Assembly (NCBI GenBank): GCA_973895155.1
Contig: OZ316894.1
Span: forward strand, 22,353,867 to 22,417,866
Reading direction: 5' to 3'
Length of the DNA: 64,000 bases
Source: Marsupella aquatica
Taxonomy: Eukaryota > Plantae > Marchantiophyta
The notes beneath the pieces were generated by a model. The model had not been told where the DNA came from and made no database searches. It was given only the letters and a program-made list of their open reading frames with translations. Below, in pieces: positions 247-34,764 of this stretch (positions are counted from its first letter, which is position 1; the number at the start of each line of letters is the position of its first letter). Made by a program: the position numbers and the translations under genes.

Positions 247-375
247 TGAGTCTTACAATAATGTAATTATTCCCACATAAATGAATCATTTTTCAAGCAC
301 ATGTCTCAAACACCTTGCCAAACTATAATTCAATGTGTTGATTTATATTCAATTTGTAAATTAAGAATCTAAACC

Positions 376-398
376 TATCACTATATTCATTAAAACTG
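376..398 (+). repeat. Left terminal inverted repeat TATCACTATATTCATTAAAACTG
   Basis: Exact reverse complement of 30158..30180. Confidence 0.85.
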
Positions 399-419
399 TA
401 CTTTTAAAAGTCCATAAGA

Positions 420-545
420 TGAACCCTAAAGTTTTTTTTTTCAGGCCAAATTTCTATTAAAGCATTCCCAAAAGCTAATTTTTTTCAGCCCAAATATACA
501 CTTTTGAACGCCCAAAATTTTGTTTTTTTTCACCCAAATGTTTAA
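420..545 (+). repeat. Left subterminal degenerate repeats, ~22-bp period (CCCAAA...TTTT)
   Basis: GGCCAAATTTCTATTAAAGCAT / TCCCAAAAGCTAATTTTTTTCA / GCCCAAATATACACTTTTGAAC / GCCCAAAATTTTGTTTTTTTTC / ACCCAAATG. Confidence 0.65.
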
Positions 546-846
546 TAATAACTTAAATCATATATTCTAATTAATTTAAAAATTAGAGTAAATTTAATTT
601 AGTCCAAAAATCAGAGGCCAATACCACTCAGACCATCTATAAATTAAAAAATATAGATGGTCATAAATCAAGGGTCAAAATGAGATTGACCCACTATATA
701 ATTATTAAATTGTCCAATCCAGTGAGAGAGCCTCACACTAAGCATATATCCTAATTATTTACTTTATCCTACATGTTCAAAACATATCCTTTCAAGACAT
801 AATATGAATGTACAATTCAGGGTAGGCACTAGAGCAACCCTATCTC

Positions 847-1896
847 CTAATGATCAAGACAAAACTCATTTGAACAAGAAAGTCTGCTTCCTGATTTATC
901 ATAGCGGATGTCACGGTTGCAAGTATCTCTCGCATGGTGGTTCTTAAACTTATTGGTGAGATCCCTAGTTCTGAGAACTTTCCAAATAAAATGCCTTCTA
1001 TTTTGTGTATGAGGACCAGAATAGTTGTCTCCAAGTATTACGTTTGCAGTTTCTTCGATCTCATCCGTGGTCCACGTCTCCAGTGGTGGGTAATGCTGCA
1101 CCTCGTTCTTTCCGTCCCAAGGAATCTCTTCAGGAGTCACATCCAAGATGGTTCCAAACTCCCTATGGATACAACGACAATCTCCCCACTTCTGTTCCAA
1201 AAGAGCATAGATGGCAGCATGATCCTCCTTGCTTGTTAATAAATTGAAAACAGACCACTTTGGATTGTTGACAGTGATATAATGTTGAACGCAGTAAGCC
1301 TTTCTCAATTTGCAAAGATACGGCCATAATATCTCGGGCAAAAAAGTGTCATTTGAAGCTGTGTGAGTAAATGGATTTGGAAACAATCCATTCACGTCAT
1401 AATTCAAAAATGCCTTCAATGGAGAATCATCAATAAGAACTGTATTAGAAGCATCATATTTTTCTGGAAAACGGTCCCAAATGGTTTGCAAATTCTTCAG
1501 AAGTAAATTGGCCTTCCCATCTGTTATATCTGGCCTTTGGATGCAACTATCAAAGGTATCTTCTTGAGTAAAGACAAACTTGAACTTTTGTCGCTCCTCC
1601 TCAGTGAAAATCAACTCCATTAAGTCCATTGTTTTTGGCCTCCTTGCACAGGTCCAAATTGCGACGTCAAAAACCATGAAAGCTGCATATAGAAATTTGT
1701 GGAGGTATGGGCGCTCCACATACATGAAATTAAACCCTCCACGTCTCCCCCAGTGCACACCACGTAAACTTGTCTGATTTCGCCATGGTCCTGAGCTTCT
1801 GGTCTTAATGCAATCCCAACAAATCTTGTTAAGGTCAAGAACCAAGAGCTTTCGCCGGATCGGAGAGTGTAGTATTGGAGTGAATTCTGGAAACAT
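847..1896 (-). CDS. FCP1/NIF (HAD superfamily, CTD-phosphatase-like) domain protein, transposon cargo; may have upstream exons
   Basis: 349-aa ORF with KLLVLDLN, RPYLHKFL, VAIWT, KNLQTIW and NTVLIDDSPLK motifs in NIF-domain order. DxDxT is altered to DLNKI. Confidence 0.8.
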   Translation of the reverse strand: MFPEFTPILHSPIRRKLLVLDLNKICWDCIKTRSSGPWRNQTSLRGVHWGRRGGFNFMYVERPYLHKFLYAAFMVFDVAIWTCARRPKTMDLMELIFTEEERQKFKFVFTQEDTFDSCIQRPDITDGKANLLLKNLQTIWDRFPEKYDASNTVLIDDSPLKAFLNYDVNGLFPNPFTHTASNDTFLPEILWPYLCKLRKAYCVQHYITVNNPKWSVFNLLTSKEDHAAIYALLEQKWGDCRCIHREFGTILDVTPEEIPWDGKNEVQHYPPLETWTTDEIEETANVILGDNYSGPHTQNRRHFIWKVLRTRDLTNKFKNHHARDTCNRDIRYDKSGSRLSCSNEFCLDH

Positions 1897-3300
1897 TAAT
1901 ATAAGCCTTAGTCAATGCGACTCAAAGTTTAAACAATTACTACGGAGGAAAACTCTCAAAATTTGAAATCAAACAAACTTTGTTATAGCATTTGAAGTAG
2001 AGAGGAACGACCCTAGGGTGACCCTCCTAGAAAAACATTAATTACATTCAATTGCCATTTTTTAGATCCAAAGTATACCTGGGTCAAACCCTTCCTCCAC
2101 AGCAACGCTTTCCGAGGGAATGCCAACAAAATCCTTTGAGGAAGGAGATTCTACGACGGAACTTTGGTCTGTAAAAAAGTATATTATTACAAAGATAAAG
2201 CTTAGATTATCATTAAAATACCAAGAACCAAAGAAAGGGCTAATAATTTCCAATGCTAAAATGCCCAAATTCATCTATTGTTTGATCACCTAGAACACTC
2301 TGTATCTCGGAATTGATACCACTGGGAAGTTGCTCTTCAAAGGATGGGGGTGCAAAAACTGGGTGTAGTATTGCACTAAGGACATAAATCAACATTTAAT
2401 ATCCAAAACTCGGTATTCGATCCCATGGAAGAACAAGAAAGGAATGATTTTTTATCGTTTAACACTTATGAATGACTAAGGTAACAAAAACACAGGTTTG
2501 AGCCTTTTACTATGTTTGCTCAGCAAGGCATAGATTTGAATGTTTGCTTAACATTGTAAATGCAATTAATAAAATGGAAACAAATAACAAAACACAATGA
2601 AATCTTAAGGTATGATGAGGGAGTCTGGAAAACACCAAGGTAACTTCTCATCAATACTTCATTTGATGTGATTCTGGTGGTATATCCGTAAGAACATTTC
2701 TGGAATGGTTTACTGTACTAGGATGATTACTAAAATACCGTCAACACGTCTCAACTTTTCCTTCCAAAGGTACTCAGAAGAAACTAGTAATCAATCACTT
2801 CGATATCCAGTCGGTACTCTGAGTCACGAATAATAAACACCATCATGATCAAATTGAAGTCACAGGTAATTGGTGAGTAACAATCTTTGCATCCGTGCAC
2901 AAGCAATGTCATGCCAAAAACTATGCATCAAGAACTCAAGAAGATGGGTTGTCACCACTTAAGGAATCTATTCCCTCATACTTCTGAGATTCAACTTCAT
3001 ACAAGTAATTTTACTTCAATGATCTAAACTCTCAATCATTCAGACCAAGGAAGGGAGAAGAATTCCTTTGTATTTGCAAGCAAAGGTGATTCCAGTCTGC
3101 AGCACATGCCACAGGCACTACTTTATTTCTTCACACTTGAAAATGACACAAATTCTACTTCATATAGGCTAGCAGGAACCCAAGGAGACTGAGATACTGA
3201 AAGGACATGCCCTTTCATATCTAAAGGGTCTTGAATAAACTTAATGACGGTCATCCTTGAAAAGTGAATGGACACTGCTGAAAGTGTCAAAAATGCAGGG

Positions 3301-3987
3301 GACGCTTCTCAAAGCGTCGAGGTTTGAGCGGACGCTTTGCAAAGCGTCGGTGTTTGCGGTAAAACTAATAAACAGTGATTTTAATCTAATTTTAACTTCT
3401 AAACTAAAAGTCGGAATGAGTTGAAACTTTTCTAGTGTACTCTACTACATATAATCTCTATGCTGACAAAGTTTCAGACTTTTCTGAGATCTCTAAGTGT
3501 CTCAAATAAATCGGTAAAAGTGGCGCGGTGTTATAAAAGTGCGAAAACTGAAAAATTTTCTAAGTGTCGGGAACATAGTGGACGCTTCAGAAAGCGTCCA
3601 AACCCACAAAGGACTTTTGTGGACGCTTCAGAAAGCGTTGGCTGAATTTTGAGGTTTGATCGCGACGTCCGTCTTCTGGTCTTCGGGTGCGACGCTTCAG
3701 AAAGCGGCGAAGTCTGTCTTGGCGGACGCTTCAGAAAGCGTCGATTCTGCTTTGTCTTCGAACACGGTCGGACGCTTCACAAGGCGTCACTTCTCATGTG
3801 GACGCTTCAGAAAGCGTCTCATCGGACTTTGGGGTTAGCGGATGCTTCTGTGGGCGTCGCTCCTCATGTGGATTGCAGAGCGTCGGAGTACAACTGGTTG
3901 GGTGGTGGACGCTTCAAAAAGCGTCGTGGTCTTGGGTGGACGCTTTTCAAAGCGTCCAAAAATACAAGGGACGCTTCACAAAGCGTC
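3301..3987. repeat. Array of ~13 palindromic 18-bp units GACGCTT-N4-AAGCGTC with variable spacers
   Basis: Copies start at about 3301, 3331, 3581, 3622, 3691, 3725, 3771, 3801, 3841, 3871 (degenerate), 3908, 3939 and 3970. Confidence 0.9.
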
Positions 3988-4140
3988 GGCGAAGTCGCGG
4001 CTATGCAAAAAACAGCAAAACTAAATTAATTCTAACTTTCAAACCACATGTCGGTTTGAGATGAAACTTGCAGGGATGATTCTACTACGCAACTACTACC
4101 TCCTGAAAAAGTATGAGACTTTTCTGACCATGATAGCTAT

Positions 4141-7100
4141 TTAACTAAAATAGCAGAGATCGGCTGATTGTGATAATTGTATACAGAGCTCATTCTTGTT
4201 GAAAAAGTGTTTTGGAGTCCGGTTCTTGAATCTTCTAGTCTGCATTGCTTCTCCAATGATGTCCAGTCTTCTTTCTTGGTAGCATGTAAAGAGCAAGGAT
4301 TTATATTGGCGATCCTTGTCCAATATAGGCAATAGCCTCCGATGAAGCATAACATTAGGTAAAGTGTTCGGTTGATCTAAATTGCTACAAAAGGTAACTA
4401 GATTGTACCTTGAGTTAGAAAAAGTTTAAAATTTATAAAATTTCCATCATTTCTAACTAATGTACAGCATTACACTGGGCTCAGTCTCAAGTTCAGTTTT
4501 TTGTAATCTGATTTTGCCATTATCTTTGGAGCATCGTCTAGTGATTCTATCATTCCAACCTTTGGTCCATTTCTCCATATAAAATGAGTTGCAGGACGGA
4601 CTGTTTTCATATATCCAGTCCTGCCGATCTCGGATCCAGAATTTTGTGAAAATGATAATACTACGGGGCTTCCTGTAGAAGCACTTGTAAAAACCAATTT
4701 AGTCTCTGATGAGCAATATAGAGGAGACAGGGGAGGATTTGAAGCACCTGCCTTCTCTTCTTCATTTGCAGCGGTCTCAGGTACTTGACGATCATCCTCC
4801 TTTGCAAGTGCAATGTCTGACATTTCTCCCAATTCTACTGCGTCAATATTGCCTAGACCATCTACGGTTGCCTTCCAATGTGCGTCCGATGTGGACGATG
4901 TAAGATCTGGGTCCGATTGGTGCATCCAATTCTCTACACCCGCAAAGGGATTTCTTGGTGGGTCGCCCTCAGGTCGACCCACAACATCAGCCAACCCCAC
5001 ACCAAAGTAGGGAATACCTACCACTTGTGTTCCACATTCATCCAAATTTTGGGTGACCCTGTCGTCTGTGTCGTGACCCAATTCTCCTTCCTCAATATCA
5101 TCTTCGCCCTGGTCTACGCCTTCTTTGGCACCAACATGCTCGGAAACCCCATCGCGGGCTCTACCAAATTTGGAACCGCCCATCCGGTCACTCATTATGG
5201 AAGGAACTTTCTCGCAGAGAACCCTTCCATATGCCTGAGTGAAATCATATTCATCCTCAGTGTCTGAATATGCAAAGCATTCTCTGAAACACAACAATGA
5301 CACCTTCATAACCTGTCCTCCCGAGAAAAAGTCAAGTATAGTCTCCCCTTCAGCCGAAAAAAATTCAATAATACTCTGCAGCATACATTTTGGCTTAGCG
5401 TGAATATTCACAAAGCCACCTCTACTTCCCACCATCTCAAACATGGGAGCCTTTCGTAAGAAATCTCCAATGTGAAATGCCAAAGTTGACTCAGTCTCTG
5501 TCTCCTTACTTGTCTTACTCTTATTCTTATCTCGCTTCTCCGTCTTGTCTTCCACTTGGAAATCAGGGTCGATCGCCGAATTGTAAGAAAATTGGTAATT
5601 AAATCCAGGCCTGAACACTTGCTTCCAATCAAATTTCTCCTTAGTGGTGATTCCTGCAAAGATTATCTCCTCCATACCACAACTGAAAAGTAAGCCCTCT
5701 GGAACTGGTGTATCACTCCGTCGATAGCTCCCGTAGTCGACGTGGATGTCCATTCCCTTTTCATGTTGCAATTTCCTAAGGGCACTCAAAATGTTTGCAG
5801 CAAGTGGCCCCGGATGCACAGTCATGACAACAACAATTGTTGGATTTCTTGGAAGATCCACAATGTATTGTAGTAATGCAATAATTTCAGCATCGGTCCA
5901 AACATGTTGTCGGAGCCTACTGAAGTCAACAATGGCAAGAGGACACAAAGGCGAAGGCTCTTGTAGCATTTTCGGCACGATCGTCTTCATCAAATTCTCA
6001 CTAAAAAATGTCAAGAAAGGCTCCGTGCGAGAACGACCAATCCCACCAAATTCTTTACAATACAACCCATCTAGTCTGACCATCAGACTTTGTGGGAAAC
6101 TCTCCTTGACCACATTCTTCTTCAATGAATTGTTGAGGTAAACCTCACCCGCTGCTCTCCTCAATTTTGTCATCTCAAGCTCAGATTTCAAGGAAGGCAA
6201 CAATATCACCAGAGACTCCCAAGATGTGCCAACAGGAAACTTCTCACGATACTTTTCCACGAAATAGCCAATAATGATTGTTCTCAATTTGGACATTATC
6301 TTGATTGTAAGGGCCAAGTCTCCCATTGCGACAAGCTCTGATTTGTTGGTGATATCCTTCTTCAGCAAGACACGCTCCTCTTCAACATCCTTCAAGATCT
6401 CAATTATCTGTTTGCTACTAATCTCTCCTTCAAAGCATCGAAAGGTACCGGGAGTGATCAATTTTGGGGGTCTTGGCCCTCCATACCCACCAGCCCCGTC
6501 TTGGAGCTTCCCACTCAACCATTTTGCACACACGTTCTGCCATAATTCAAAGAGCTCATCTTCGGCAAAAAGTAACCAATAAATGCTCTTTAGGCTTGAC
6601 TTCCCCATTGTAACCTTTGCCAGGGCAAACCAATCCTGCATATCCAATGGACTTGACATTAGTTTCAGGGTACAATGCATATGTTAGAAAATTTATACCT
6701 ATGTTTGAAATAGGCAACTTTGATATCTCCATTGCATGCGAAAGATTGAACATTCGATATACAAAAACGGCCGATGGCGGATTAATACTTTTTACAGGAA
6801 TATCAAAAACTTCGCGGATGCCAAAAGTATAATACTGCTCAATATTACGCAAAACCTCTTGGCCTTTGAGCACATCATCTTCTTTGGGTCCTTCTGTCGG
6901 ACACATATCATCCTCTGGATGCAAGACAAAGTTTGAAGTCGACCCTGACATTGGTTTTGATTTCGCAACCTTTGCCTTCTTTGTCTGCTTTTTTTGGGGG
7001 CCCTCATCATCTTCATTTTTTTAACCATCTTCTTACAGCGTGAACTCCCAGATTGTTTCTCTTGTTGAACAACCGGCTCTTGAAGCTTTTGTTTCTTCTC

Positions 7101-8725
7101 TGTCTTTGATTGCACACTTCTTTCCACTGTCTTCTTTCTCTCCTTTGCCTTATGCTTTGCTTCTTTTTTCTTCATCTCTGAAATCCACGTCCGGCACGCG
7201 GCCTCTTGAAACTCTGGACAAAAAATGAAACTCTTGTCGATTGCTTGCTCGTATGAAAAATGTGCCTTATCAATCATCCTTTGAACTATCCAAGTAGACG
7301 GAGGGTCCACACTGTCCGCATTGTCATGCATGTGCTTCTTTACGTAGAGAAATCCAAACACTAGGTCAACTCCACTTATTTGAGAACGCGTCTTCTCAAA
7401 CATCTGATCAATTGTTACTCCATCTGGGAAGAATCCCATATCAGCTACGCTTATCTCCAATCGAGCCATCCACTCAACATTCAGTAAAGTCGAGTAGAGT
7501 TTTATTGGCACTAGAAGTCTCATCCACTGAGATTTCTCATTGGACTCAACAATAATCGTTGCATTGCGGTTGTTGTCCGTGTTCACAAGGACGACTGGAC
7601 CTAGAGTAACAATTGTCTTGCGGTCATTCAATTGACTTGTGAGGCCCTTGAAACAAATCAAGAGACTGCCTTCCGCCGACACCCCAACTTCTAGTGCCCA
7701 TCTAAATCCTGGAGTATCTTGGTCAGGGAAAACAAAGTCCTTGATATCCTCGTCCATAATATTTAACTCCGGCTTCTCAAGATTTTTTCCTGGTAAGAAA
7801 CATTGAAAACAAAATGGTCAGCATCATATTTTTAACATTGACATGTGGAAAACTTTCAAGGTGCCTCGCCCTTGGGGCGAGGCGACAAATAGAAGATTGC
7901 AAAATCTTCTTTGCTCCTAGTGCAATTAGCCCTGCCACCTCATCCAAGCAATCAAACATTATTTAGGAATGCAGACGATATCGCCTCACCCCAAGGGCGA
8001 GGCAACTTCTAGGAAAGCAAACAACATTTAGGAATGCAGACAACATCGCCTCGCCCCAAGGGCGAGGCAACTTCTGGAAAGCAGACAACATTTAGGAATG
8101 CAAAGGACATCGCCTCGCCCCAAGGGCGAGGCAACTTCTGGGAAAGCAAACAACATTTAGGAATGTAGAGGACATCGCCTCGCCCCAAGGGCGAGGCAAC
8201 TTCTGGGAATGCAGACAACATTTAGGAATGCAGATAACATCGCCTCGCCCCAAGGGCGAGGCAACTTCTGGGAATGTAGACTACATTTGAGGAATGCAGA
8301 CGACATCGCCTCGCCCCAAGAGCGAGGCAAAAAATAGAATATAGCTAAAGATCCTTTATTAATGTAAGATACAAGGTCCAATACGCCTTCGGAGCAACAA
8401 GAAATCTAGAATGAAGTAGACGTCGCCTCGACCTTGGGGCGAGGCGACTGCAAAGGAATATAGAAATTTTCCTAATAAGAAATTTGAAATCCAAATTAAA
8501 GTAAAGTTGCCTCGCCCTTAGGGCGAGGCAAGAAGTTGAAGCAGATGGTGCCTTACGTGGAAAAGTTAATTGGGCTTTCTTTGACGCCTCCAACGCATTG
8601 TTAACCAATTTTTGGACATCCGGGTCTTCAGGGTCATATTCATACAGAGAGTTATAATTGAAGTTCAATGACTCTTGAGAACTGGCGGAGGTGGTGGAAG
8701 CTTCAGAACTGGAGGAAGTAGACAT
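4141..8725 (-). pseudogene. Spliced, frameshifted transposon gene with beta-class N4/N6 DNA methyltransferase-like domain and possible ParB-like N-terminal remnant
   Basis: Exon 8725..8557, GT-AG intron 8556..7790 in phase with ORF 6792..7757, frameshift near the A-run at ~7020, ORFs 6556..6951 and 4470..6680, then 65-nt GT-AG intron 4473..4409 in phase with 4141..4350. HAKPKCMLQSIIEFFSAEGETILDFFSGG...RECFAYS matches the xKP...GDxVLDPFxGSG...GRxxIGxE pattern. Confidence 0.65.
7965..8330. repeat. Tandem array, 6 x ~65 bp, each with hairpin GCCTCGCCC-CAA-GGGCGAGGC
   Basis: Unit starts at 7965, 8030, 8094, 8159, 8224, 8290. Further single copies near 7863, 8425 and 8508. Confidence 0.95.
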
Positions 8726-9884
8726 TGTAAGGGGCGAGTGAGATTTAAGATGACATGTGGCAACAATGGAGAATGCCACAGGCTGCAAGAGGGCACTAAC
8801 AGGCAAACAATGATCGAGAGAGCAACCCAAAAGGGAAGGGAGCAAGGCGGAAATAAAAGCCTTAGAGCGAGGCGGAAAACAAATCCCAAGAGCGAGGCAA
8901 AAACAAAAGCCCTAGAGCGAGGCAAGAGGGAGGCAAGGAGTGAGGAGACGAGAGAGGAGGCAAGAGGGAGGCAAGGAAATGAGGCCTCAAGCGCAGGGTC
9001 TGCCTTCCTATACCCCCTACGAGCAAGGAGTCCGAGGAGGCAAGGATCCGAGAGGGTACGGAGGCATCAATGTGCGCCAATGATGGAGACCCTCCTCGGT
9101 GCATGTGATCGTGAGTCACCGATGGTGTGACCACTCACGACCACTCGCGACTCACCTACCAATTTTAAACTTCCGAGCTGTCAGTGGTGTGTGCTCGCAA
9201 CTCACCTATCACTCGTGAGTGATTGGCTGACACCCTATCCGATGTCTACTTGTGTGCTGGGTGCGTGCCTCATCCACCCGTGCCCGATCTGTTGGTGTCC
9301 ACTCGTGTGCTGGGTAATGTGTGGGCTTTTTGCCTCTCAAACTGAGTATAGACCTCCCACAATCCATTTTTTGGTTCATTGTCATTTAGACAGTGATTGG
9401 TACGATCATTGACTCTCCTCTGTCCGAGTGCCTTGTTTAGGTCCGCATGGTTGAATGCAAGGTTTAGTAAGGGCACTGGTGAGCACTATGGTGCTAAGAG
9501 TTACAATGCTGGCATCCAAGGTACCCATTTAGCTTGTACAAGGGTGGACAGAGATATATTGCGGAGCAGGTTAGTGATTTTATTTATTTATCTTAGAAGT
9601 ACTAGCTCAACTACATCTAATTCAATACCTTTAAGCCAAACCTAGATTAAGATTTACACATTAGGTTCTAGATCATATATTTTACTCATTCTAGACCTTT
9701 ATCCACAATCTAGCATGTGTAGAACTTACTGTACCCCTTTATGTGATTACTAACATAGTTTTTAGAAGTGGGTCGGAATTATTTCGTGCCGACCTGACTA
9801 TGTCATCTTAACTAGCATTTTAAACTGGTATATAAAAGCATAAGCAAGATAGTTTCACAAATAGTTTTGACATAATTTCAACTT

Positions 9885-10220
9885 AATAGTTGGAGTAGGG
9901 TCGAAATAATTCTGACCCAACTTATCAATGTTTAGTCAATTAAATCATTTTAAGACATATTGTTGGAGGAGGGTCGAAATAATTCCGACCCGACTTGTAA
10001 ATGTTTAGTCAATTCAATCATTTTAAGACATATTGTTGGAGGAGGGTCGAAATAATTCCGACCCAACTTGTAAATGTTTAGTCAATTCAATCATTTCAAG
10101 ACATATTGTTGGAGGAGGGTCGAAATAATTCCGACCCGACTTGTAAATGTTTAGTCAATTCAATCATTTCAAGACATAATGTTGGAGGAGGGTCGAAATA
10201 ATTCCGACCCGACTTGAATG
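9885..10220. repeat. Tandem array, 5 x 73 bp, each with imperfect palindrome GGGTCGAAATAATTCCGACCC
   Basis: GGGTCG cores at 9898, 9971, 10044, 10117, 10190, plus an inverted degenerate copy near 9770. Confidence 0.95.
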
Positions 10221-10342
10221 TATTTAGGGTTTTGAGTGATTTTACAATATTTTTTGGAGGAGAGTCCAGATTTTGAAACATGATCGTAACATGGGGAACT
10301 TAACAATTTCTAACTTTATTTGAATATAGATAGTCCGCTATC

Positions 10343-13300: not shown

Positions 13301-14056
13301 TTTCCTCTGGTCAAATATTGGGAGAATCTTGTGCAAGCACTGTCCGAGGAACTTACAATAGAAGGGGAGGGGGAAAGATATTTGTCATTGACAACTGATT
13401 TTTGGCCAAAGACTAACCATGGCACAGGTTACAAGATGATTTTGGGGACATCTCAGCCGTCAAGTGAACCTTCTCAAAATCCAGAGATGATGGACCTTCA
13501 AAATGAGTACATGGAAGAGATGGAAGATCAAGCTGCACCCTTTGTTGGTGCACGACAAGAGCGAGAACCTGCACGTTGGATTCCTCTACAAGATATTCAA
13601 GAAGGTCACTTTGTATTTTTACGTCCAGAGGATGAATGGGAACAGGAAAATGGCAAAGGGCGTTTCTGGTTGGTTCGAGCTTTGGGTGGTGTGGATCCAA
13701 ACCATGAGGTTCCCTCAATAGATTTGCAACATATTGAAGGGTCTTCTTCAACGTCTGTTGAGAGCATTCCTCTTAGGAATGCTCCTATGTTCCAAGTACA
13801 ATGGTGGAGGCCTAAACATGGTAAGCATGATGCAAAGGATGATGTTCGATATGAACGTTGCTTTCAAACCACTAAGACTTGGGAGCTGGATCCTGGGTTT
13901 GACAATGTTACTCAAAGTTAGCAGTTTGCAAATTCTGCAATGTATGGGTTTAAGTCAGGTGCTAAAGAACAAAATATTATGGATAGAGGTTTGACAATTC
14001 CTAAGAATGTTTTGAAAACTCTCAAAATTTACATGGAAGGTATAATTGATGAGTAG
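10343..14056 (+). pseudogene. Disrupted DUF7869/Sola-like DDD transposase with three N-terminal En/Spm TNP1-like domains
   Basis: Four overlapping ORFs join via frameshifts and stops. Motifs: CC..CC, CTFC, IIHDKMDQ, LQMDNSGKDNKN, SFLMVGHTHEDVDALFS. Three repeats of (A/V)xGxV...LG...LP...W at the N-terminus. The frame continues past TAG 13919 to TAG 14054..14056. Confidence 0.8.
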
Positions 14057-14139
14057 ATTGATAGAACTCGTAGGTTACAAGTCTCCACTCAAATGACTTG
14101 TGATTAAGAGGGTCGAGTTGATTTCCATGCATTGGTCTA

Positions 14140-20236: not shown

Positions 20237-22021
20237 CTATAATAGCAAAATCCATCTTGCTACTCTGCCTGTAAGGTCCGGCTTATTGACTAGGTACTTC
20301 AAACTTTCATGATCAGTATGAAAGATTACCTTGTACCCTAGTAAATAATGCCTAAACTTTTTACAAGAATAAATGACTCCTAATGCTTCTCTTTCCGTGG
20401 TAGAGTAGTTCCGTTCGGCATCGGCAAGCTGACGGCTTGCGAAGTATATGGGATGGTCCCTTCCTTTCTCATCCAACTGACTTAGTACTGAGCCAATACA
20501 GAAGCCCGAGACATCTACAAAAACATGAAAATCTTTGTTCCAGTCCGGTGCTATCATGACTGGGGCCTCTACTAACATCTGCTTCAATTCTACCACCGCT
20601 GTGACTTGTTCGGGTGTGGGTTCGAAGTCTGCTCCTGCCTTGAGCATATTGGTTAATGGTAAAGCCAGCTTGGCAAAATCCTTGATGAACCGGCGATAGT
20701 AACCAATGCATCCCAAGAAGGATCCTACATCCTTTATGTTCTTAGGTTGCATGATATCTAGCCATACTGCTAGCTTACCTTTGTCAATCTCAATGCCCTT
20801 CCTTGATACCTTGTGACCTAGTAGCACCCCCTCGGTTACTGCAAAAAAACATTTATCTGGGTGTAACTTGAGACCCACCTCTCTACATCTCATGAAGGTT
20901 TTCCTGAGGTATTTAGCATGTTTCGATGCCTTCCCGAATACTGCAAAGTCATCAATGAAGATTTCCATGAACTTTCTCAAGTAATCATGAAAAATGTTCA
21001 CCATTAATCGTTGGAACATAGCTGGTGCGTTGCAGAGTCCAAACGGCATACGATTGAAGACATAGATCCCCCATTCCGTGATGAAGGCCGTCTTGATTTG
21101 GTCTTCCTGCCGAATCCTGATTTGGTTATAACCAGAGTATCCATCCATGAATGAATATAGTTCATGACTGGCTACCATGTCTAGTACCATATCAGTAAAC
21201 GGTAAAGGAAAATGGTCTTTTAATGTTGCTTCATTCAGCTTCCTGTATTCCTGACAAACCCGGATCTTGGGTTTACCATCGGGTCCAGCTTTCTTGGGAA
21301 CTATCACAATTGGAGACACCCAGTCTGAATGCAGGACTGGAGTGATGAATCCAGCTTCCACTAGTTTGTCGATTTCTGTTTTGACCAGCAGGGAATACTT
21401 CGGGTTCATCCTTCGAATTGGTTGTCGAAATGATTTGGCTCCTAACATGAGATCAATTCGATGTTCCCCTAGTGTTGGATCTACTCCCTTTAGATCTTGG
21501 TGACTCCATGCAAACACATCCTGAAATTCAATCAATAAGTCACTGATCTCTTTCTCGAGCTCAGGTGCTAGGTTTCTCCCTAAGTTCAGTTCTCTTCCCT
21601 CTCCTAAGTCGAGCTTCCGATATTGCCGTGCTTGGATCATATTAATCTGCTTCTTCAAATTCGGGTCCAGTTCGGCTTCCAGTCTCTCTAATCTCATACC
21701 TCCATAAACTGGGATTTCGGCTGGACTAGCCGAGTCGGTCCCTTCCTTGGTGTCCATAGATTGTCCCCTTACCGGTCTATTCGGTTTTGAATTAGTGGTC
21801 GGCTCCCCTTCCTGCCTTGGCTCTAGATCGTGTCTGTCCATCTCATCCACCTCTTGCTCCTGAGAGTTAGGCCGCTGTGCTCTCTCGGCTTCTAATAGGG
21901 CCTCAATTTGTTCTGCCCTCGTAATCGGCTTGTATGCCGATCCCTTGGTATTTAATTCCTTGCCGATGATCGATGGCGTTGTGGACCCCGTTGGCTCTGC
22001 CACAACGCCTGCAGAAAATCC
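20237..22021 (-). pseudogene. pol: Reverse transcriptase-RNase H with premature TAG
   Basis: DHFPLPF, DGYSGYNQI, MPFGLCNAP, FIDDF, RNYSTTERE, TDH. WILLL*EFDY has TAG in place of the conserved Gln. Confidence 0.95.
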
Positions 22022-23367
22022 ATTGTCCCTGCTACTGCTCCCCACTTAGCCGTTTCATCCAATTGGTCTACATCCTTTACTTCCTCCGGAATTGCAGCTA
22101 AAAAGGTGGATTCTATTGTAAAGCAGTCCTCGACCTCTTCGTCTTCTTCTTCCAAGTCACCTTCCATTGGTTCTTGCCATAATCCGTTGGGGGGTACCTC
22201 TGGTCCAAAGACACCTTCTTCGGTTAGGTTAGTGAGGCATTCTAACCAACGTACTTCATCGGCTGACTCCAGTCCACTGTCGTACCCATCTATTTCCCTT
22301 ATGCTTTTCCTACGGTCATCCTTAATGTCCCAGGATACCGTGATAGAGGGGGTCCCGAAAGTGAACTGCTTTTTACCCCAATCTTCTATTACCTCGGCTA
22401 GGTACAGCCATGGCCTACCAATCAATAGCCGGAATGACGTAGGATTTACCGGCTTCATTACTACATAGTTAATGCTAAAGAAGATACCTCCTATCTCTGT
22501 CTTGATGCCGGTTAACACTCTCGTCGGAATGACCTGATATCCATTGGCCATGTTCAACACTCTTCCAGTCATCTCCGGTGTTAGACCCCACCCTTTTGCT
22601 GTTGAATCAATCATAATACATACCCCTGATCCTCCATCGATGGGTACCCGTAGTAATAATTCTCCTTGAATCATTAATGGTAATGCTGGGGCTCCTTGAT
22701 CTTCTTCTATCATTAGTACGTCGGATCTGGTTGCTACCTTGGGTAATCTCGGCTTGCCGAGAATAGCCTTCCTTAATTGCTTCTGGAAGTACGGGCTATT
22801 TTTCAATAGTTGACCTACTGTTGCCGAGACTCTAGATTCTAGTACATCTTTAGCCAGGTCATAGGGAACAATCGGCTTCTCTTCTGGTGGTGTTTCCGTC
22901 TTGGATTCGGCCAGTTTTGCCACGCTAGTCTCCACAGCTGTTGGGTCTTCCGAAGCAAACAATGCTTTTGCTCGTTTTACATCCTTGGCAATGGCTTCGG
23001 TATTCTCCAGGGTTTCTAATTCTCTTAGTTGTTCCTTAACACTAGCCGTAACAGAGGGGTAGAACAACTTAGGATGATCTCGATTGAAGTCGCTATCTTG
23101 TGAAGGATTGGTTTCACTGGTGGGCTCATGGCTTACCTGTATTGCCGGAGCCCTCCCTTCTCCTTCTGTTGATGTTGACGAAGAGTCGATCCTTTCCTCC
23201 GTAACCTTCCCTTTATTTTTGGCCAGCCCATCCCACCTTTCCTTCCTTCTGGTAGATCGAGTAGAGACCCGGTAGCAATCATGATCTAAATCCTCCTCTG
23301 AGAAGGTTGATAGGGCTTTGGCCTCATCATCAGATGGTACGAACTCTGCCTCGGCATCCTCTTGCCA
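21952..23367 (-). CDS. Aspartic protease region, in the gag frame after a TGA
   Basis: IDGGSGVCIM and LLIGRPWL motifs. The frame is open from 23367 to TAA at 21952. Confidence 0.85.
   Translation of the reverse strand, partial: WQEDAEAEFVPSDDEAKALSTFSEEDLDHDCYRVSTRSTRRKERWDGLAKNKGKVTEERIDSSSTSTEGEGRAPAIQVSHEPTSETNPSQDSDFNRDHPKLFYPSVTASVKEQLRELETLENTEAIAKDVKRAKALFASEDPTAVETSVAKLAESKTETPPEEKPIVPYDLAKDVLESRVSATVGQLLKNSPYFQKQLRKAILGKPRLPKVATRSDVLMIEEDQGAPALPLMIQGELLLRVPIDGGSGVCIMIDSTAKGWGLTPEMTGRVLNMANGYQVIPTRVLTGIKTEIGGIFFSINYVVMKPVNPTSFRLLIGRPWLYLAEVIEDWGKKQFTFGTPSITVSWDIKDDRRKSIREIDGYDSGLESADEVRWLECLTNLTEEGVFGPEVPPNGLWQEPMEGDLEEEDEEVEDCFTIESTFLAAIPEEVKDVDQLDETAKWGAVAGTMDFLQALWQSQRGPQRHRSSARN
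21975..22021 (-). promoter_or_regulatory. Candidate programmed -1 ribosomal frameshift signal (PR to RT)
   Basis: In-frame G_GAT_TTT (22021..22015), 5-nt spacer, perfect 10-bp stem GGCGTTGTGG/CCACAACGCC with 15-nt loop. The RT frame is -1 relative to PR and the two overlap only here. Confidence 0.75.
22037..22048 (-). promoter_or_regulatory. Candidate central polypurine tract
   Basis: TAAGTGGGGAGC identical to 18793..18804, ~140 bp from the element midpoint (21903). Confidence 0.55.
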
Positions 23368-24945
23368 TCATAGTTCGATGTGGTTGATTTGAACTCCTCC
23401 GGGGGTAGTACCTGGCGGTAAGATCTTGATCGGCAAAAGCTTATGATTTGCGGCCAGGCCTGCCAACCAAGTAGGACATTGCCCTAGCATATGACCTTCC
23501 TGTCGGCATCCCATACATAGCTGAGCTGGTTGTCCATCACCCTGTTTGCGTGCATTCGGGCATTCTCTAGCAAAATGGCCAGGTTGACCACAATTATAGC
23601 ACGCCGCAAATCTTTGCACATTCGGCCTAGGAGGTACTGACGGGTTCTGAATAATCCGAGGATACATCTCTCCTGGATTGTTCCTTAACCCTGACCACAG
23701 AGATGCAGGTCTGTTGGATAGGTCTCGTGCTCCAGTCTCACTGATGCCGAAAACACTATCAGCGGCATCTCCCAAAAAGTACTCTACTTCTCCCTGACAT
23801 GGTCTGATCTCGGCCACATGCCGAACATGATTAGTATTAAGCTTAGGACACGCATCTTTATGGTGTCCGGTTTTATAACATAAGGCACACCATACAGAGC
23901 TATCCTCCTGTACTACCTTCTTCTTTGGTTTTACCTCTGCAATGATAGCCTTAAGTTGCTCGGTAAGGGCTACGATGTTATCTGGTGGCTTAGCCTCCAT
24001 CTTGACTTTCGTCTTCCCTCTCCTTCTGCCCTTCCTTTTCCTAGTTTTTTCTTCTTCAGAACTAGAAGATGACTCACTCTTGCTACTCCCACTATCCGAG
24101 CTTGACTTATCACTTCTAGACTTCTTGGAATGTTTCTTCTTCTTATCTTTTTTCTTATGGGGTGATCCCTCCTCTGATGAGGAACTCTCAGACTTAAGCT
24201 GTTTCTTCCGGCTTGTGATATCTGCATTAATGTATAATTGAATATCCTTAATTGCTTCGGCTAAAGTCTCCGGGTTCTCCTTCCTAATTGCAAAACTCAT
24301 CTTCTGTGGCAAAGCATTCACCAACCATTGAAGTTGCATACCTTCAGATGCATTGGTCTTTGTACGTCTTACCAGTTTCTGAAAGCGTTGCAAGAACTTC
24401 CTGAAGGATTTGTTCTCCTTGAACCGAAGTTGTCCCAACTTCAGCACTGCTAGTTCTGAAGTTCCAATGGGTCGAAACTCCTTAACAAAGAGTGTTTTGA
24501 AGATATCCCAGATGGCTTGATCTTCCACATCTAATGCTCTGTACCAAGGCCTAGCCTCACCCTTGAACAGGCCGGGAAGAATCTGCATCTTGATGGCCGA
24601 TTCTCCATTTGCTGCAGCGGTTCCCTCGAAATCATCCAACCATTCGTCCGGATCCTCATCTCCTCTCCCATGAAATGCCTTGTAATGTATGCGCGACCGC
24701 TGGCTCAATCTGGTCCCTGGCCTCTCGTCTGGCCGTGCCTCTGGTTCCCCCATGTCGGTTGGAGACTCACTTCTCCTTACCGACTCTTCTTCTGGTATGT
24801 CTTCTTCGACGCCACTTCCAGTTTCGGAGCTACCAGCTCTTTCTGCCCCTCTCAGTCGTTGTGTATCATGCCACCCGGCGAGCTGCTGCAGTCGAGCTCT
24901 CTCCCGTTGAATCACTCTTTCTTCCCTCGGCGTAAGGTCAGTCAT
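23368..24945 (-). CDS. gag: Gag with three CCHC zinc knuckles
   Basis: FHGRGDEDPDEWLDDFE..ARPWY capsid motif; CALCYKTGHHKDAC, CYNCGQPGHFAREC, CMGCRQEGHMLGQC. Confidence 0.95.
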   Translation of the reverse strand: MTDLTPREERVIQRERARLQQLAGWHDTQRLRGAERAGSSETGSGVEEDIPEEESVRRSESPTDMGEPEARPDERPGTRLSQRSRIHYKAFHGRGDEDPDEWLDDFEGTAAANGESAIKMQILPGLFKGEARPWYRALDVEDQAIWDIFKTLFVKEFRPIGTSELAVLKLGQLRFKENKSFRKFLQRFQKLVRRTKTNASEGMQLQWLVNALPQKMSFAIRKENPETLAEAIKDIQLYINADITSRKKQLKSESSSSEEGSPHKKKDKKKKHSKKSRSDKSSSDSGSSKSESSSSSEEEKTRKRKGRRRGKTKVKMEAKPPDNIVALTEQLKAIIAEVKPKKKVVQEDSSVWCALCYKTGHHKDACPKLNTNHVRHVAEIRPCQGEVEYFLGDAADSVFGISETGARDLSNRPASLWSGLRNNPGEMYPRIIQNPSVPPRPNVQRFAACYNCGQPGHFARECPNARKQGDGQPAQLCMGCRQEGHMLGQCPTWLAGLAANHKLLPIKILPPGTTPGGVQINHIEL

Positions 24946-24992
24946 TACCTACGCCTCCGTTCTAACTTCATATCTCACGGCTTAAGAAATGC

Positions 24993-25010
24993 CCCCTCCA
25001 TCTAGCGCCA
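24993..25010 (-). promoter_or_regulatory. Primer binding site (cognate tRNA not assigned)
   Basis: TGGCGCTAGATGGAGGGG begins 4 nt (TTTT) after the CA end of the 5' LTR. Confidence 0.85.
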
Positions 25011-25205
25011 AAAATGTGGTGCGTCCCATGGCTCCCTAAACCCAAGAAACCCCCCAGCTCAAGCCGATTCCCGCAGGTTTTGTGCTTGGCAAGGCCGTTT
25101 CCGCGGCTTAGCGGCATGGGACGCTGCTAACCTTCTACTACTACTATTAACATTTTACACACATATACTGGACAGATCCTTCATCGGGTCATGAGATACG
25201 TAGCC

Positions 25206-25220
25206 GGCCTAATATAGGCC
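25206..25220 (-). promoter_or_regulatory. Candidate LTR TATA element GGCCTATATTAGGCC (copy at 14331..14345)
   Basis: TATA-like core in GGCC flanks ~190 bp before the LTR 3' end and downstream of the LTR ORF. Confidence 0.4.
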
Positions 25221-25926
25221 TTCCCCTGTCTTCCCCTGTCTTCTTGTTAGGTATGTTTGGATTCCGCCGCCGGAATGATCCCCAATAGGCTTGGTTAAGC
25301 CGCTAAGACCTCTCTCAGCTCGACACATCCAACTCTCACTCCCCTGCTTACTTTCCTTCCTTCTGTTGATGTGGGCACTCTTCACACAAGTTAATGCGAC
25401 ACACAAATAGCAAAATGACTCATTCTGACTGAGTCATACCATGCACTTGCCATACAAACAGTACATCTCATACACAAGTTCTGCGAACTAAGCCGTGAGG
25501 CCAACTCTATTCAGCTCTTAGGCATGAGGAAACATGAATATACACAAGGGTCATTGTATGACTAACCGAGAGCTTCTCGTACTACTTGATCCCAGCCCGG
25601 CTGGTGCAAACTAAAAACTTGCTAAAGAAGAGGCCCTGAGCTCCCCGCTGCCCAGGTACTTATCCTGGTAGTGGATCCGCCATTCTTTGCATCGTAAGCC
25701 TAATCTACCTGACAGTAATCTACTTGCCCGAATCTACCTATGTACAGCAAGGCAGGAGCACAAGTGTTGCTCCTACCAGTGGGACCGCAATCCCACTAAG
25801 CTAAGTGTCAGGGCCGCTCCTGGTTCTGATCCTAATCCTAAACGTGGAGATCCGCGCCCGCCCTGCCCACTCACGCCTCCTCCCTCCACGTCCGCCCTCC
25901 CTAAAAGGAACGGCGCCCTTGCACCG

Positions 25927-28900
25927 TCACGACACCGGTGGTGGATCCTCAATGGACGCCCCCAACACTTCCTCCTCAGCCACTGCCGTTGGCCCGCCTA
26001 CTGACAGATTACCTGCCCTTGACCGAGTCAACTCTCCATCGGCCTGACTGGGTCCACCTTCGGCTTCAGCCTCGACACCGGCCTCGGCAATACCCACGGC
26101 TTCGGCCTCAGCCACTCCCACGGCTTCGGCTTCAGCCACTCCCTCGGCTTCGGCCTCCCCTTCCCCTAGGGTAGTTGGATCCTTAGCCGTGACCCTGTCT
26201 GGGGTCGGTGCTGGGTCTACCTCCTTGATCACCACGGCCTGTGAAGTCGTATTACTCCTTGACCCTAAAGGTTTCCGCTTCTTCTTCGTTGGTGGCTCGG
26301 CAGCTGGTCCCTTCCCCTTCCCACTTACTTCCGGCACTGGTGCAGTTGACGCGGCTTGTCCTTCGGCAATTACCACCCCTGGTAACTGGTTTGTCCCAAC
26401 GGGAGATGGACCTGCTGCAGCTAAGCATTTAAATATTGCGGCTTGTTTCTTCAGCCGCTCTGTTTGGTTGTCGGCCCGCCGCTGTAGGTTCTCCATCTTC
26501 CTCGTGATTTCCTCCAACTCCTCTTGGGTTTCATCCAGGTCCTTACGTGCCCCCTCCAGCTCGTTTTTGGCCTCCTCCTGCTCCCTGTGGGCTTCCTCCA
26601 ATTCCTTCTTCAAGGTAGCCCTCTCCTCCCGGGTTGCTCTTAGCTCCTTGTCGAGCTCTGCAATGATGACAGACTCCATCTGGTTCATCTTGGCGTAAGT
26701 CTGTTCGAGCATCTCGTCCTTCTCCCTTAGGTCGGCCTTGAAGCTGGCCGTCAGGGACGCAAGCTCCTGCTGCAGCGCCATAATCCCTTGATAGGATTTC
26801 CCTAACTCGACCTCCTTCTGCTCAAGGGCTCCGCGGATTTTCTCGAGCTCCCCTTTCAACGCCCATTCCTTTCTTTGGGTCTCCGCCATGGCCCGGCTGT
26901 TGGCTGTTATGTGGGCCTCCTCTGTATTCTTCAGCTCTTGCTTCCACTTCTCCCTCTCTTTGATCGTGTCGGCCAACTCTTCCTGCGTCTGAGTCAGTTT
27001 ATCCTTGATATTCTGATTATCAGCCTGCGCGGTGTCCAACTGCCCCTGCATGATGTTGAGCTCATGTCGTTTAATCCGCAGTTCATCTTGGGCTTTCTTG
27101 GCCGCCCTTAGATCTTCAATCTCGGCTTCCATCCTCCTAAGTCGCCGAATGACCTCGTCCTTCTTGCTTCTCTCTAAAGCCACCGCTTCTTCTAATTGGT
27201 GCTTCTCCAACTGCTCCCTATGGAAAAAGGGTCCTACCTCCAACTCCTCTCCAAAGATGCCGAGCGCAAGTTCCCCACACATCTCACCATACTCCATGGC
27301 TCTATTCTTAGCGTAGGTGGAGTAAGTAGAAGTGATCGGCATCGCCCATCGTGGCCTCTGCTCCCAAGCCGTCCTGCGGATCTCTTCAATCGTGGCTAGA
27401 GGTTTGCTTCCTTTTTCGGCTAGCCGCCTGATGTCCTCCGGCCAATCTCCTCCTGGTAAATCCTTTTCCTTAGCCAGGGCGGCCTCTTCCTCCTGCTTGA
27501 TTCGCTCCTGAAATTCCTGCACCGTCTGTTTTATGCCGTCGAAGCTCGGGGGAGCAACATCTGGTGGGGGAGACTCAGGGCTACTCTGCTGGTTGGGGTC
27601 CCCTCGCACTACCCTTGGAAGTGTGGGGACAAACCGGCCACAGGTCCTTACTCCTGGAACGTGATGGTCCGACCCATAGCCGGAATTATCATGGCTGCAG
27701 TCCTCCACTGCCTCCTCTACCTCTTGGACGTCCGGCTTCTCCCTCTCCTCTTCGTCGGTAGGAGCTTCAGGCAATTCTGCCTCAGATTCGGAGCTTGAGG
27801 TTCCCACGTACATTCGAACACCTGGCTTGGATTCCGGCCTGATTCTCTCCTTGTCTCCAGCAAAGGGGTTTTCTCTTGTGAGCCGGTGTAGGCCTACCTC
27901 TGTAGTAGTGTCCTGCATTGTTGCCGTTGCCGTTGTTGTTGCCGATGCCGATTTCTTTTCTTTCTCCAGTAGTTTCAGCAGACTCTGCATGCCTGGTTGC
28001 TGCATCGGCAAGTCTTCCTTCCTGGGCCTAAACACCTGCTCGATCGTAGGACTAACAGGTGGTTGAGGCTTCTTAGCCAACGGCCTCGGCGTTGGAGCTT
28101 CCTCGGGTGCCCTTACCTGCAGGGGAAGTACCGGGGCAAAAGTCTGACCTCTGGCATACCGGCACAACAGCGGCATGTGATAGCCAAGCCGCGACACGCT
28201 CCCCATGCCGATTACCTGCTGCTCCTCCTTTAAGATCTTCTTCAATTGGTTGAGGAGGTACCCGTTGTAGTCCCGGCTTGGGTCTGGCCTTTCTGCCAGA
28301 TAGACCTGTGCCTTGCCGATCTCTGCCCTCGGCAAGTTACAATGCATGGTCACCCGCAAGAAGTCGATCATCTCTCCTATGTGCGGGTTGGTGCAGGTGT
28401 TCCGGAAGAAGCCATTCTTCGTTGATGGCCCGGGGAACGACCGGAACTCCTTGTCAGGCAAGGTCTTCCTGGTATCAACTTTGGTCTTATTGCCTATCGG
28501 CAGGCCAAACACTTCGGCAATTACCTTGGGAGTAAGATAGAAATCCTTCCCATATATCCTCGTGCAATTGGTCTCGGGTTCCCATGACCCCACGAATTCT
28601 AATAGGTCTGACTCCGGTACCTCCGGCTTCAGCCATGGTAATCTTACAAAGGCCTCCAAGCCGGATCCGGCCATGAAGCCTTGGTACTTCTTGGTCTGCA
28701 TGGCCGTAAAGCATGCATCCTCCTCCCGTGCAAAATGTAGTTGCACCTCCACCGGTAGGGTTGCCGCCCAGCCCTTCCAGGTGTCATCTCTGGTTGGAAT
28801 GGCCTTGATGGGATCGACCTCCTCCTCTTCGGCTTCTCCCTGCCTCCTGCTCTGCTGCTCGGCTGGCTTCTTTGGTGCCGCCGACCTCGTTCTTTTTGCC

Positions 28901-29550
28901 GGGGTGGCTTCATCGTTGACGGCTCCCTTCCTCTTCATCTCTGCTGCCGTGGAGGTTTCTCCTAGCACCGTTGCCTGGGTCCACCTTTCCGTGCAACCCT
29001 TTAATTCCCAGTGTATGTCGTTGCAGTTCTTGATGGCCTCTCGGATGCCGACGACGCTGTCTTTGCAAAACAGAAGATCGTCGAGTTGATTGGAAGTAGG
29101 CGTCCACAGGAACTCGTCCTTGATGAGTTCGCCTCCTAAGAAAGCCGTCTTCTACAGCTCCCACAATCGAGCGAGCTCCTGCCGTTCTCGAGCTGCCCTT
29201 TCTGATTCCTCGTCCTCGTAAGTCTTGATGTACTCAGTTGCCCGTTCGAACAGGCATCCCCAGAAATGTGCCGCTTGATTGATGTTGCTCATACCCTCCT
29301 TAGGTCGATCGTCGGTATCTACTCTCTCCCCGAGTGCTTGCCTAAGCAGCTGACAGTAGTTGGCCTCCCGTAGTCGTCTGCCTAGTTCGTGCTCGCAAAT
29401 GAGCCACCATCTCCTGCAAGCGCTCCTTACCCCTCTCCTCTGCCGGTCCTTCTTCCCGTTGATCCTTCCTAGCCGCCGACGCTTAACGCGCCCTAACCCT
29501 AATCGGGTTTTCACCCTTAGCCTTACCTCCGGCCTCGGCCCGGGTTCCAT
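25927..29550 (-). CDS. Second copy of the LTR-encoded accessory protein, same in-frame TAG (29152..29154)
   Basis: Differs from the 15052..18675 copy at three residues (K/E, V/I, M/V). Confidence 0.8.
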
Positions 29551-29954
29551 GGTTGCCCCTAATTGTTTATATTTTCCTTGTTTTGTCACTATACTAAGGT
29601 GTTCCTAGGGTGCCTTCCTGCTTTACCCACTTAACCGGTCGAGTGATTCCTGTCTAGGCATCACAGTCTAAAGTGAGAGAACAAGACAATTAAATTAATA
29701 CTCTATGATCTCTCAAAGCTATTGAATGGACTTTCTTATAATTATTATTTTATTTGTCTTAGTATATTTTAATTCTAGAAAATGATGTCATTTCATTCCT
29801 TCTAGTAGGTTGGATATCATCCTAGTTAACTTTGTCTAGACACTATAGTCATTCCATTGTATTGGTGCTTAGTTAGATATCTTACTCAAGCTAAATGTTT
29901 TGAATATAGATGCTATCCAAGCTTATATGTTATTACCAGATTCTATCTATTTTC

Positions 29955-30140
29955 CAACCAAATGAACACTTTTATCACCCAAATGTTTTTTAATATCATC
30001 CAATTCAATATTTTACTTTCCCAAAATTTCATTTTTTTGTCCCCAAATTTACATTTAATGATGCTTGAATTTTCATTTTTCATCTTCCAAATTTACAATT
30101 TTCATGCCTAAAACTATGTTTTTAAATCGCCAAATTTCCC
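29955..30140 (+). repeat. Right subterminal degenerate repeats, ~22-bp period (CCAAA...TTTT)
   Basis: About nine units such as CCAAATGAACACTTTTATCAC, CCAAATGTTTTTTAATATCAT, CCAAAATTTCATTTTTTTGTCC. Same orientation as the left set. Confidence 0.65.
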
Positions 30141-30157
30141 TATATCCTTTATAATTT

Positions 30158-30180
30158 CAGTTTTAATGAATATAGTGATA
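30158..30180 (-). repeat. Right terminal inverted repeat
   Basis: CAGTTTTAATGAATATAGTGATA, reverse complement of 376..398. Confidence 0.85.
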
Positions 30181-34305: not shown

Positions 34306-34764
34306 AGCCCATACTGCCTTTATTCCTTCACAGCTTTTTCCAACAAAACAAATGCTTCCAGAAAGAAGTCTAGGCTCGTATCAGAATGGGCCGAGGTCAG
34401 AGTGGGAGCGAGCCAGAGTTCAGGGAATTGGGCTCCCAGAAATTGGCCACTTTACTGATAAGCGAGTTTATTGTGCTTACCGATTTGTTGTGCTTTCAGG
34501 ATTCTGTGGTTGGATTGGCTTTCTCCACTTTCGCTACTCTGTGACGGGATTCTCTTCCGACATAGAACGGAGGTGTAGGTTTCAGGGCAAGGATCCTACA
34601 GAAGCTCGAGAAGTGCCGTGCAGTTTAGAAGAATTGTTGACAACTTTGAAAGAGTGTGCAAGTTAGTGTAGATTGCTTTCTCAGGTAGCAAGAACAGCGG
34701 CTTTAGAAGAGCTGTGATCACGCAGAGTTCCGAGGTACAGCTCCGACGCATTTTGCTATTCGCC

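Follow-up and report, generated by a model that had tools for sequence, protein, structure and literature searches.

Two papers from 2025 have proposed that the ParB-methylase genes of giant algal transposons bind and modify the very element that carries them; we found no test of the idea in the accessible parts of these papers. In the brown alga Ectocarpus, Sola1-1_Ec32 is a giant element of 21.5 kb with terminal inverted repeats (TIRs), a 4-bp target-site duplication (TSD) and an opposite-strand gene of 1,104 amino acids for a ParB-like protein with an N4C/N6A methyltransferase (PMC12477816). The Plavaka elements of red algae are likewise giant DNA transposons, whose accessory genes PAG2 and PAG3 are PF01555 methylase and ParB-like genes, the latter situated beside tandem inverted-repeat arrays, and self-binding has been proposed for them (10.1101/2025.02.11.637652). 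Two further systems are similar in layout: the tandem motifs bound by VANC of the VANDAL elements lie in introns and intergenic DNA (PMC5735166), and TnpA of Spm, which depends on host demethylases, recognizes motifs in clusters (10.64898/2026.08.24.746577). Here we describe a transposon from the liverwort Marsupella aquatica, located at 377-30179 of a stretch of 64,000 nucleotides (the window; assembly GCA_973895155.1, contig OZ316894.1, positions 22,353,867 to 22,417,866 of the forward strand), which is a land-plant variant of the kind described in algae in 2025. It would be best explained as a multi-copy, Sola-like cut-and-paste element with a divergent accessory gene, whose product has a methylase fold of bacterial type lacking the PPY motif.

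The ends of the element are set by other copies. The perfect 23-bp inverted repeat noted in the original prediction is real (376-398 against 30158-30180; 91% identity when extended to 33 bp), and a rough estimate from base composition gives an expected number of 3e-9 for a 23-mer repeat within the window. With symmetric ends anywhere between 374 and 381, the duplication can be read in four ways, as CC, TA or AT (2 bp) or as ACCT (4 bp; ends 377/30179), and no 3-bp reading was found. In four of four runs (X1, X3, X5 and X6), taken as DNA because their contigs cover introns and insertion junctions, the shared contigs stop at 30179 and continue into differing flanks, and one X5 contig begins at 377. 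Since the shared sequence begins at 377 and ends at 30179, the terminus is ATCACTA and not CACTA. A single X3 contig joins the left flank straight to 30182 onward, with the length of one 4-bp site and with two substitutions; this empty-site evidence is one contig, and its flank is repeated in X3, so that it may represent a paralogous site. This contig ruled out the three 2-bp readings (CC, TA and AT); under the AT reading it should have been 6 bp longer. The comparison with other copies and an empty site that the original prediction had called for thus consists of contig ends and one X3 contig, and it gives 377/30179 and 4 bp; the absence of a 3-bp TSD stands, the statement that only 2-bp readings fit does not, and the CACTA-type ends are lost. 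In this arrangement, the ACCT copies (373..376 and 30180..30183, placed by the symmetric-end readings and the empty-site contig) enclose a left TIR at 377..408 on the plus strand, which starts 5'-ATCACTA and is perfect over 22 bp and imperfect over 32 bp, and a right TIR at 30148..30179 on the minus strand, placed by the inverted-repeat search and the contig ends. Short subterminal CCCAAA repeats with a 22-bp spacing follow on the plus strand at 467..538 and occur again near the right end (29978-30047). The interval measures 29.8 kb, 17.6 kb of which is nested retroelement DNA, so the presumed 30-kb element shrinks to a core of 12,156 bp in the window copy once both nested insertions are removed. 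An Rfam scan of 1-31000 gave 0 matches. We hold this anatomy, that is, the ends, TSD, nested insertions and gene content, with high confidence.

The element is a real, multi-copy family. Contigs of X1 have depths of 515 over the NIF region, 480 and 474 over the methylase exon and exon 2 of the accessory gene, 421 over the intergenic part, 509 over the transposase and 523-632 at the right end, as against 16.7 for the contig crossing the right junction of the window; the ratio suggests roughly 30 similar copies, although depth cannot be equated with copy number. All genes of the window copy are broken by decay. Comparison with the contigs revealed that other copies differ from it by indels at 7015, 12285 and 13193, carry extra DNA at 6716 that includes a palindrome unit, and keep the reading frames. 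There also seems to be a second, more diverged subfamily in X1: one contig with a depth of 286 has 529 other bases in place of 517 around 10476-10994, and a right-end contig with a depth of 349 (30090-30179) has 12 differences.

The transposase gene, on the plus strand at 10343..14056, encodes a DUF7869 protein of about 1,240 amino acids with three N-terminal beta-barrel repeats, a Cys-rich and winged-helix region, a D-D-D/E core and a C-terminal domain; in the window copy it is interrupted by frameshifts near 12285, 12783 and 13193 and a stop at 13919. Pieces of it match DUF7869 in Pfam above the cut-off and contain the signature DNSGKDNKN..GHTHEDVD, and the homologue search passed 18 of 495 candidates, including full-length proteins of 1,100-1,250 amino acids and gene models of Riccia sorocarpa. 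Full-length homologous transposases of 1,100-1,330 amino acids exist, and HDKMD, DNSxKDNKN and GHTHEDxD are conserved in the homologues. In a structure model of the homologue P0002 there are two N-terminal beta-barrels (as against three in the window copy, judged from alignment), a winged helix, a beta-rich C-terminal domain and a poorly modelled core. The barrels weakly match Tudor, Agenet, KOW and PWWP folds (Foldseek E above 0.001; Z 6-7), which in a model indicates only an SH3-like barrel; the Atlas gave no usable match for them. One window barrel resembles PF03017 (TNP1/EN/SPM) at E 0.017, below the cut-off and as the only one of six scanned pieces with any match, and a second weak PF03017 match of the N-terminal barrels has E 0.097. 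DUF7869 is a domain that we take to be linked to Sola transposases.

A 4-bp TSD is typical of Sola and a 3-bp TSD of CACTA (PMC10741241). The element has the former, and its TIRs (22 bp perfect, 32 bp imperfect) fall within the 11-1124 bp of variable sequence known for Sola, while the CACTA/EnSpm traits, namely CACTA/CACTG termini, a 3-bp TSD and TnpD (PF02992), are all absent. An affiliation with CACTA/CMC (EnSpm or Plavaka) through a 2-bp AT duplication is very improbable. It would account for the CACTA found 2 bp inside each end and for the weak PF03017 match, and AT formally fits as a duplication, but the length of the empty-site contig fits a 4-bp TSD, and no match to Transposase_21 (PF02992, the TnpD domain) was found at E 0.1 in the window pieces or in 9 homologues. 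The original prediction of a DUF7869, Sola-like enzyme in place of TnpD is upheld in this respect; membership in Sola itself is likely, as judged from TSD length, the D-D-D/E motifs and the analogy to Sola1-1_Ec32. Sola1-1_Ec32, to which we liken the element by description, differs from it in several ways: it comes from a brown alga and has AACCG termini and TIRs of 282 bp, compared with a land plant, ATCACTA and 22-32 bp here (PMC12477816). Its TSD is biased to end in A, and four of the five other flanks found behind 30179 also end in A, in a small sample that includes one mixed consensus.

The accessory gene is transcribed divergently from the transposase, on the minus strand, with an exon structure that we predict as follows. 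Exon 1 (8557..8725) would start with ATG and end at a GTAAG donor in a phase that fits exon 2, and the first intron (7790..8556) would contain a palindrome array. Exon 2 (6717..7789, with a frameshift near 7015) would encode an N-terminal domain and the start of a putative ParB-like domain. About 140 amino acids of the latter are gone through a deletion in the window copy at 6715..6717, so that residues 117-260 of the homologue P0125 have no counterpart in the alignment. The main exon (4480..6635) covers a helical region, the beta-class amino-methyltransferase fold and an acidic linker, and the C-terminal end of the open reading frame (ORF) is found at 2240..2363, beyond a nested solo long terminal repeat (LTR), where it matches the C-termini of homologues (DE[FY]G). 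That there is a methyltransferase-like gene, as predicted originally, was confirmed by profile match and fold model. At E 0.001 or better, 104 homologues of the methylase region were found; they share motifs down to about 22% identity, and the named sources among the 20 whose clusters were looked up are Riccia sorocarpa and Calypogeia fissa. The profile built from 62 sequences matches M.RsrI at E 5e-9, the model of P0125 matches CcrM with Z 17.6 and a root-mean-square deviation of 3.4 over 215 aligned residues, as well as other beta-class enzymes, a Foldseek match of the methylase model has E 4e-7, and the Atlas gives PF01555 at 0.91. These matches identify the modelled protein as a beta-class N6/N4 DNA methyltransferase by fold, with motif IV (LAIVDFS in the main exon) preceding motif I (ILDFFSGG).

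This methylase domain is likely inactive, since none of the homologues displayed in the alignment has DPPY or SPPY. The pattern [DNS]PP[YFW] occurs in 0 of the 38 displayed rows of 62 aligned sequences, four of these rows being fragment ends that may be misaligned; motif IV reads D-[FLV]-[STA] instead, with the Asp kept in 36 of the 38, and motif I is exactly DFFSG in 21 of 30 rows. M.RsrI, CcrM, M.PvuII and the bdelloid N4CMT agree with the accessory protein in fold and motif order, and all of them keep [DS]PPY. Marchantia MpDN4MT1, which also agrees in fold and motif order, keeps TSPPY, a motif absent here (10.1101/2021.02.12.428880). It is possible, though rather unlikely, that the protein is an active N4-methylcytosine (4mC) or N6-methyladenine (6mA) methyltransferase with an unusual active site that marks its own repeats, as proposed for Sola-1 in Ectocarpus. 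The complete beta-class fold at high pLDDT, the conserved S-adenosylmethionine-binding motif with its preceding P-x-x-K, the retained Asp of motif IV and the existence of eukaryotic 4mC enzymes in Marchantia and, by fold match, in bdelloids all speak for such an enzyme. Against it stand the absence of PPY from all 38 displayed rows, a motif I one residue shorter than that of M.RsrI, and the TSPPY retained by the Marchantia enzymes. The methylase of Sola1-1_Ec32, for its part, is predicted to methylate. Inactive methylase domains are in fact known from METTL14 and from DIRS1 elements (PMC4738411), and dead enzyme folds could have been put to use here as binding modules.

The N-terminal domain of the accessory protein may be regarded as ParB-like as a lead only. 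Its SGQHS resembles the GxxR motif of ParB, and one fold match, at rank 6 over 563 columns, is to a phage ParB/Sulfiredoxin protein. Most proteins that resemble the methylase in fold come from prokaryotes and viruses; scans of viral and prokaryotic contigs found no relative, and a phage tblastn search with the homologue P0035 returned just 2 matches, at E 7.

Two palindrome arrays flank the region between the divergent genes. One consists of 9 copies of a 21-bp palindrome, GCCTCGCCC-n3-GGGCGAGGC, in a 65-bp tandem unit on the minus strand within 7790..8556, which is predicted to be intron 1 of the accessory gene. The other, on the plus strand upstream of the transposase at 9770..10216, has 6 copies of GGGTCG-AAATAATT-CCGACCC in a 73-bp tandem unit and probably sits in an intron of the transposase 5' untranslated region, about 9570-10329. 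From this layout, a putative bidirectional promoter can be placed at 8726..9569. Allowing up to 4 mismatches, no further occurrence of either palindrome unit was found in the 64 kb. The ratio of observed to expected CpG is 0.77-0.79 in the array regions and 0.44 in the transposase, a difference that we do not count because repeat homogenization explains it equally well. All three arrays of the original prediction exist, but the third (3300-3990) lies inside the solo LTR, and therefore only two belong to the DNA transposon.

The accessory protein may be a regulator without catalytic activity that binds its own element: docked on the palindrome arrays next to both genes, it would help to keep the two genes of the element expressed by counteracting silencing. 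We favour such a regulator because of the analogy to VANC and TnpA: the arrays are in predicted introns around a divergent promoter, as VANC targets are. VANDAL/VANC and Spm/TnpA share with the liverwort element an accessory protein and family-specific short motifs that form tandem repeats in introns and intergenic DNA; they belong to the Mutator and CACTA superfamilies, however, have other accessory proteins, and have a function that was shown there and is proposed here. The self-binding step, taken separately, has in our judgement slightly less than an even chance of being correct. The Plavaka elements differ in their CMC/EnSpm transposase and in having two separate fusion genes, one of methylase with SET and one of ParB with a 2OG-oxygenase. 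Another role, to which we assign a low probability, is that of a transposition cofactor similar to TnpA or MURB, which would aid assembly of the transpososome with no effect on silencing. An interaction of MURA with MURB has been published (PMC12973397), the accessory gene is conserved beside the transposase from Marsupella aquatica to Riccia, and the transposase barrels have the two weak PF03017 matches mentioned above. Yet the arrays surround the promoter at 7.5-10 kb into the element instead of occupying its ends, where the transpososome forms, and no accessory gene is detectable at related transposase loci.

The third coding region, a NIF/FCP1-like phosphatase region of the UBLCP1-type HAD kind on the minus strand at 847..1911, matches PF03031 above the cut-off (E 3e-16) and the UBLCP1 structure 3shq (E 6e-9), which bears out the C-terminal domain (CTD)-phosphatase-like gene of the original prediction. 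Phosphatases of the UBLCP1/FCP1 type, with which it has the PF03031 and 3shq matches in common, use the catalytic motif DxDxT or DxDx[T/V]. Its first motif reads LDLNK in the window and LDVEG in the Riccia homologue P0088, both lacking the second Asp of DxDxT, and the domain would be catalytically inactive, judging from these two sequences, of which one is decayed. It may be a separate gene, or else a spliced tail of the accessory gene, which would then have two splice forms. As far as GT/AG sites can tell, the accessory ORF could be connected to NIF without a change of frame through a candidate 90-bp linker exon on the minus strand (2079..2168), using a donor at 2289 and an acceptor at 1886. 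Methylase and NIF are in one model in Riccia P0110, one of the 26 methylase homologues scanned, and the end of P0088 resembles the beginning of a NIF domain. On the other hand, P0019, P0027, P0059 and P0125 stop soon after the shared [DS]E[FY]G, as does the window ORF at 2240, which counts against fusion; no fused long forms came up in either of two homologue searches of the "longer" length class, itself weak evidence.

In Riccia sorocarpa, R1sor_018196 (a full transposase) and R1sor_018197 (methylase-like) are consecutive tags on equally long contigs. With at least 27,000 tags, a hand estimate puts the probability of such neighbours arising by chance at about 0.01, or more where elements are clustered. 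The gene set recurs in Riccia gene models, and the methyltransferase- and CTD-phosphatase-like regions are carried with the transposase, as the original prediction had it. That the methylase-like and NIF-like regions are captured Pack-type passengers without a function for the element seems highly unlikely. All regions are broken in the window copy and NIF domains are common in hosts, as such capture would allow, but motifs are common to 104 homologues of low identity, the gene set recurs in Riccia, and the methylase has the mainly prokaryotic and viral fold relatives described above.

Several observations weigh against our explanation. One of the arrays could just as well be bound by the transposase. 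No listed contig spans the whole element, which is why the co-occurrence of the regions in other copies rests on depth, and X1 may be the source sample; the co-occurrence of the three genes is thus supported by similar X1 depth across the regions and by the adjacency and fusion model in Riccia, though not by a spanning contig. The adjacency is seen for one of at least 11 methylase-like tags in Riccia, against at least 14 transposase tags. The ParB-like domain has no match in Pfam, PDB or NCBIfam and a pLDDT under 50, and the modelled transposase core, which in Sola would be that of a DDD enzyme with an RNase H fold, also has a pLDDT under 50 and no RNase H match. Finally, neither the accessory gene nor NIF is matched at any of 32 metagenome loci that have related transposases, and only 8 of these loci reach 12 kb or more; these 8 long loci are distant relatives, and the cargo may therefore be limited to one clade. 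Among the 18 of the 32 loci that were scanned for bracketing inverted repeats, none had a convincing TIR with TSD. Separately, the loci L013-L032 contain distant, decayed DUF7869-type transposases on AT-rich metagenome contigs (31-36% GC), and neither an accessory gene nor TIRs could be detected within the stretches covered. On balance, we give the explanation as a whole an even chance. A bolder version, which we consider doubtful, is that in bryophyte Sola-like elements a ParB-methylase of phage style has become a catalytically dead reader, which is spliced to an equally dead phosphatase of the RNA polymerase II CTD/proteasome type and would clamp onto parS-like palindromes in the introns of the element and shield the element from host silencing; such an anti-silencing system of pseudo-enzymes would be unrelated to VANC and TnpA and would have the Tudor-like transposase barrels as chromatin contacts.

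Two retroelements, neither part of the DNA transposon, are nested in the interval. The larger is a Ty3/Gypsy LTR retroelement of 15.5 kb on the minus strand (14140..29665, TSD GTCTA). Its LTRs (14140-18790 and 25015-29665; 4,651 bp each) differ at only 6 positions, which makes the insertion young. Although the LTRs are near-identical, stop codons (near 23368 and 20237) and a shift of frame around 22000 break up the gag-pol region (18779-24948). Each LTR holds an open frame of 1,074 codons on the minus strand (15052-18276 and 25927-29151) with coiled-coil character and no Pfam match above cut-off, and a long ORF within an LTR is unusual. The smaller insertion, of 2.1 kb (2364..4474), has TG..CA ends and a 5-bp TSD, CTGGG, and contigs in four of four runs skip it (joint 2357>4474). 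It is likely a solo LTR, as no gene was found inside. The joint was also considered as an intron linking two cargo ORFs; no GT-AG reading fits, and TG..CA with the 5-bp duplication does. The solo LTR holds 11 palindromes of the GGACGCTT..AAGCGTCC type at 3300-3988, and a retroelement with such clustered palindromes may have a binding protein of its own. Outside the element, the window contains a host gene for a peptidase M20 (aminoacylase-like) at 34672-37200, about 4.5 kb to the right, a coiled-coil-like frame of 345 codons on the minus strand (38278-39315) without a Pfam match above cut-off, and further tandem or dispersed repeats at 42787-43090, 51521-52037 and 60449-61209, with units of 103 bp, about 60 bp and 253 bp.

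The lineage was originally predicted to be poorly described, and this holds only in part: a similar Sola-1 element has been published for Ectocarpus and ParB/array Plavaka elements for red algae. In the accessible literature we found no account of a land-plant version, of PPY loss or of NIF cargo (none is mentioned in the available text on Sola1-1_Ec32), though part of it may be covered by Bao 2009 or by Repbase entries, Sola1-1_PPa among them. A survey of TIR elements in 1,007 genomes limited element length to 12 kb (PMC12973397), and full copies are likely to have been missed there for that reason. What would be new are the presumed pseudo-enzyme cargo and its probable self-binding, anti-silencing role. 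For annotation, an easy misfiling as CACTA is corrected. The family extends the pairing of ParB-methylase genes with transposons to land plants, including transformable liverwort relatives, and its two 21-bp palindromes are concrete candidate binding sites. A methylase kept without its catalytic motif would point to binding, and not methylation, as the function under selection.

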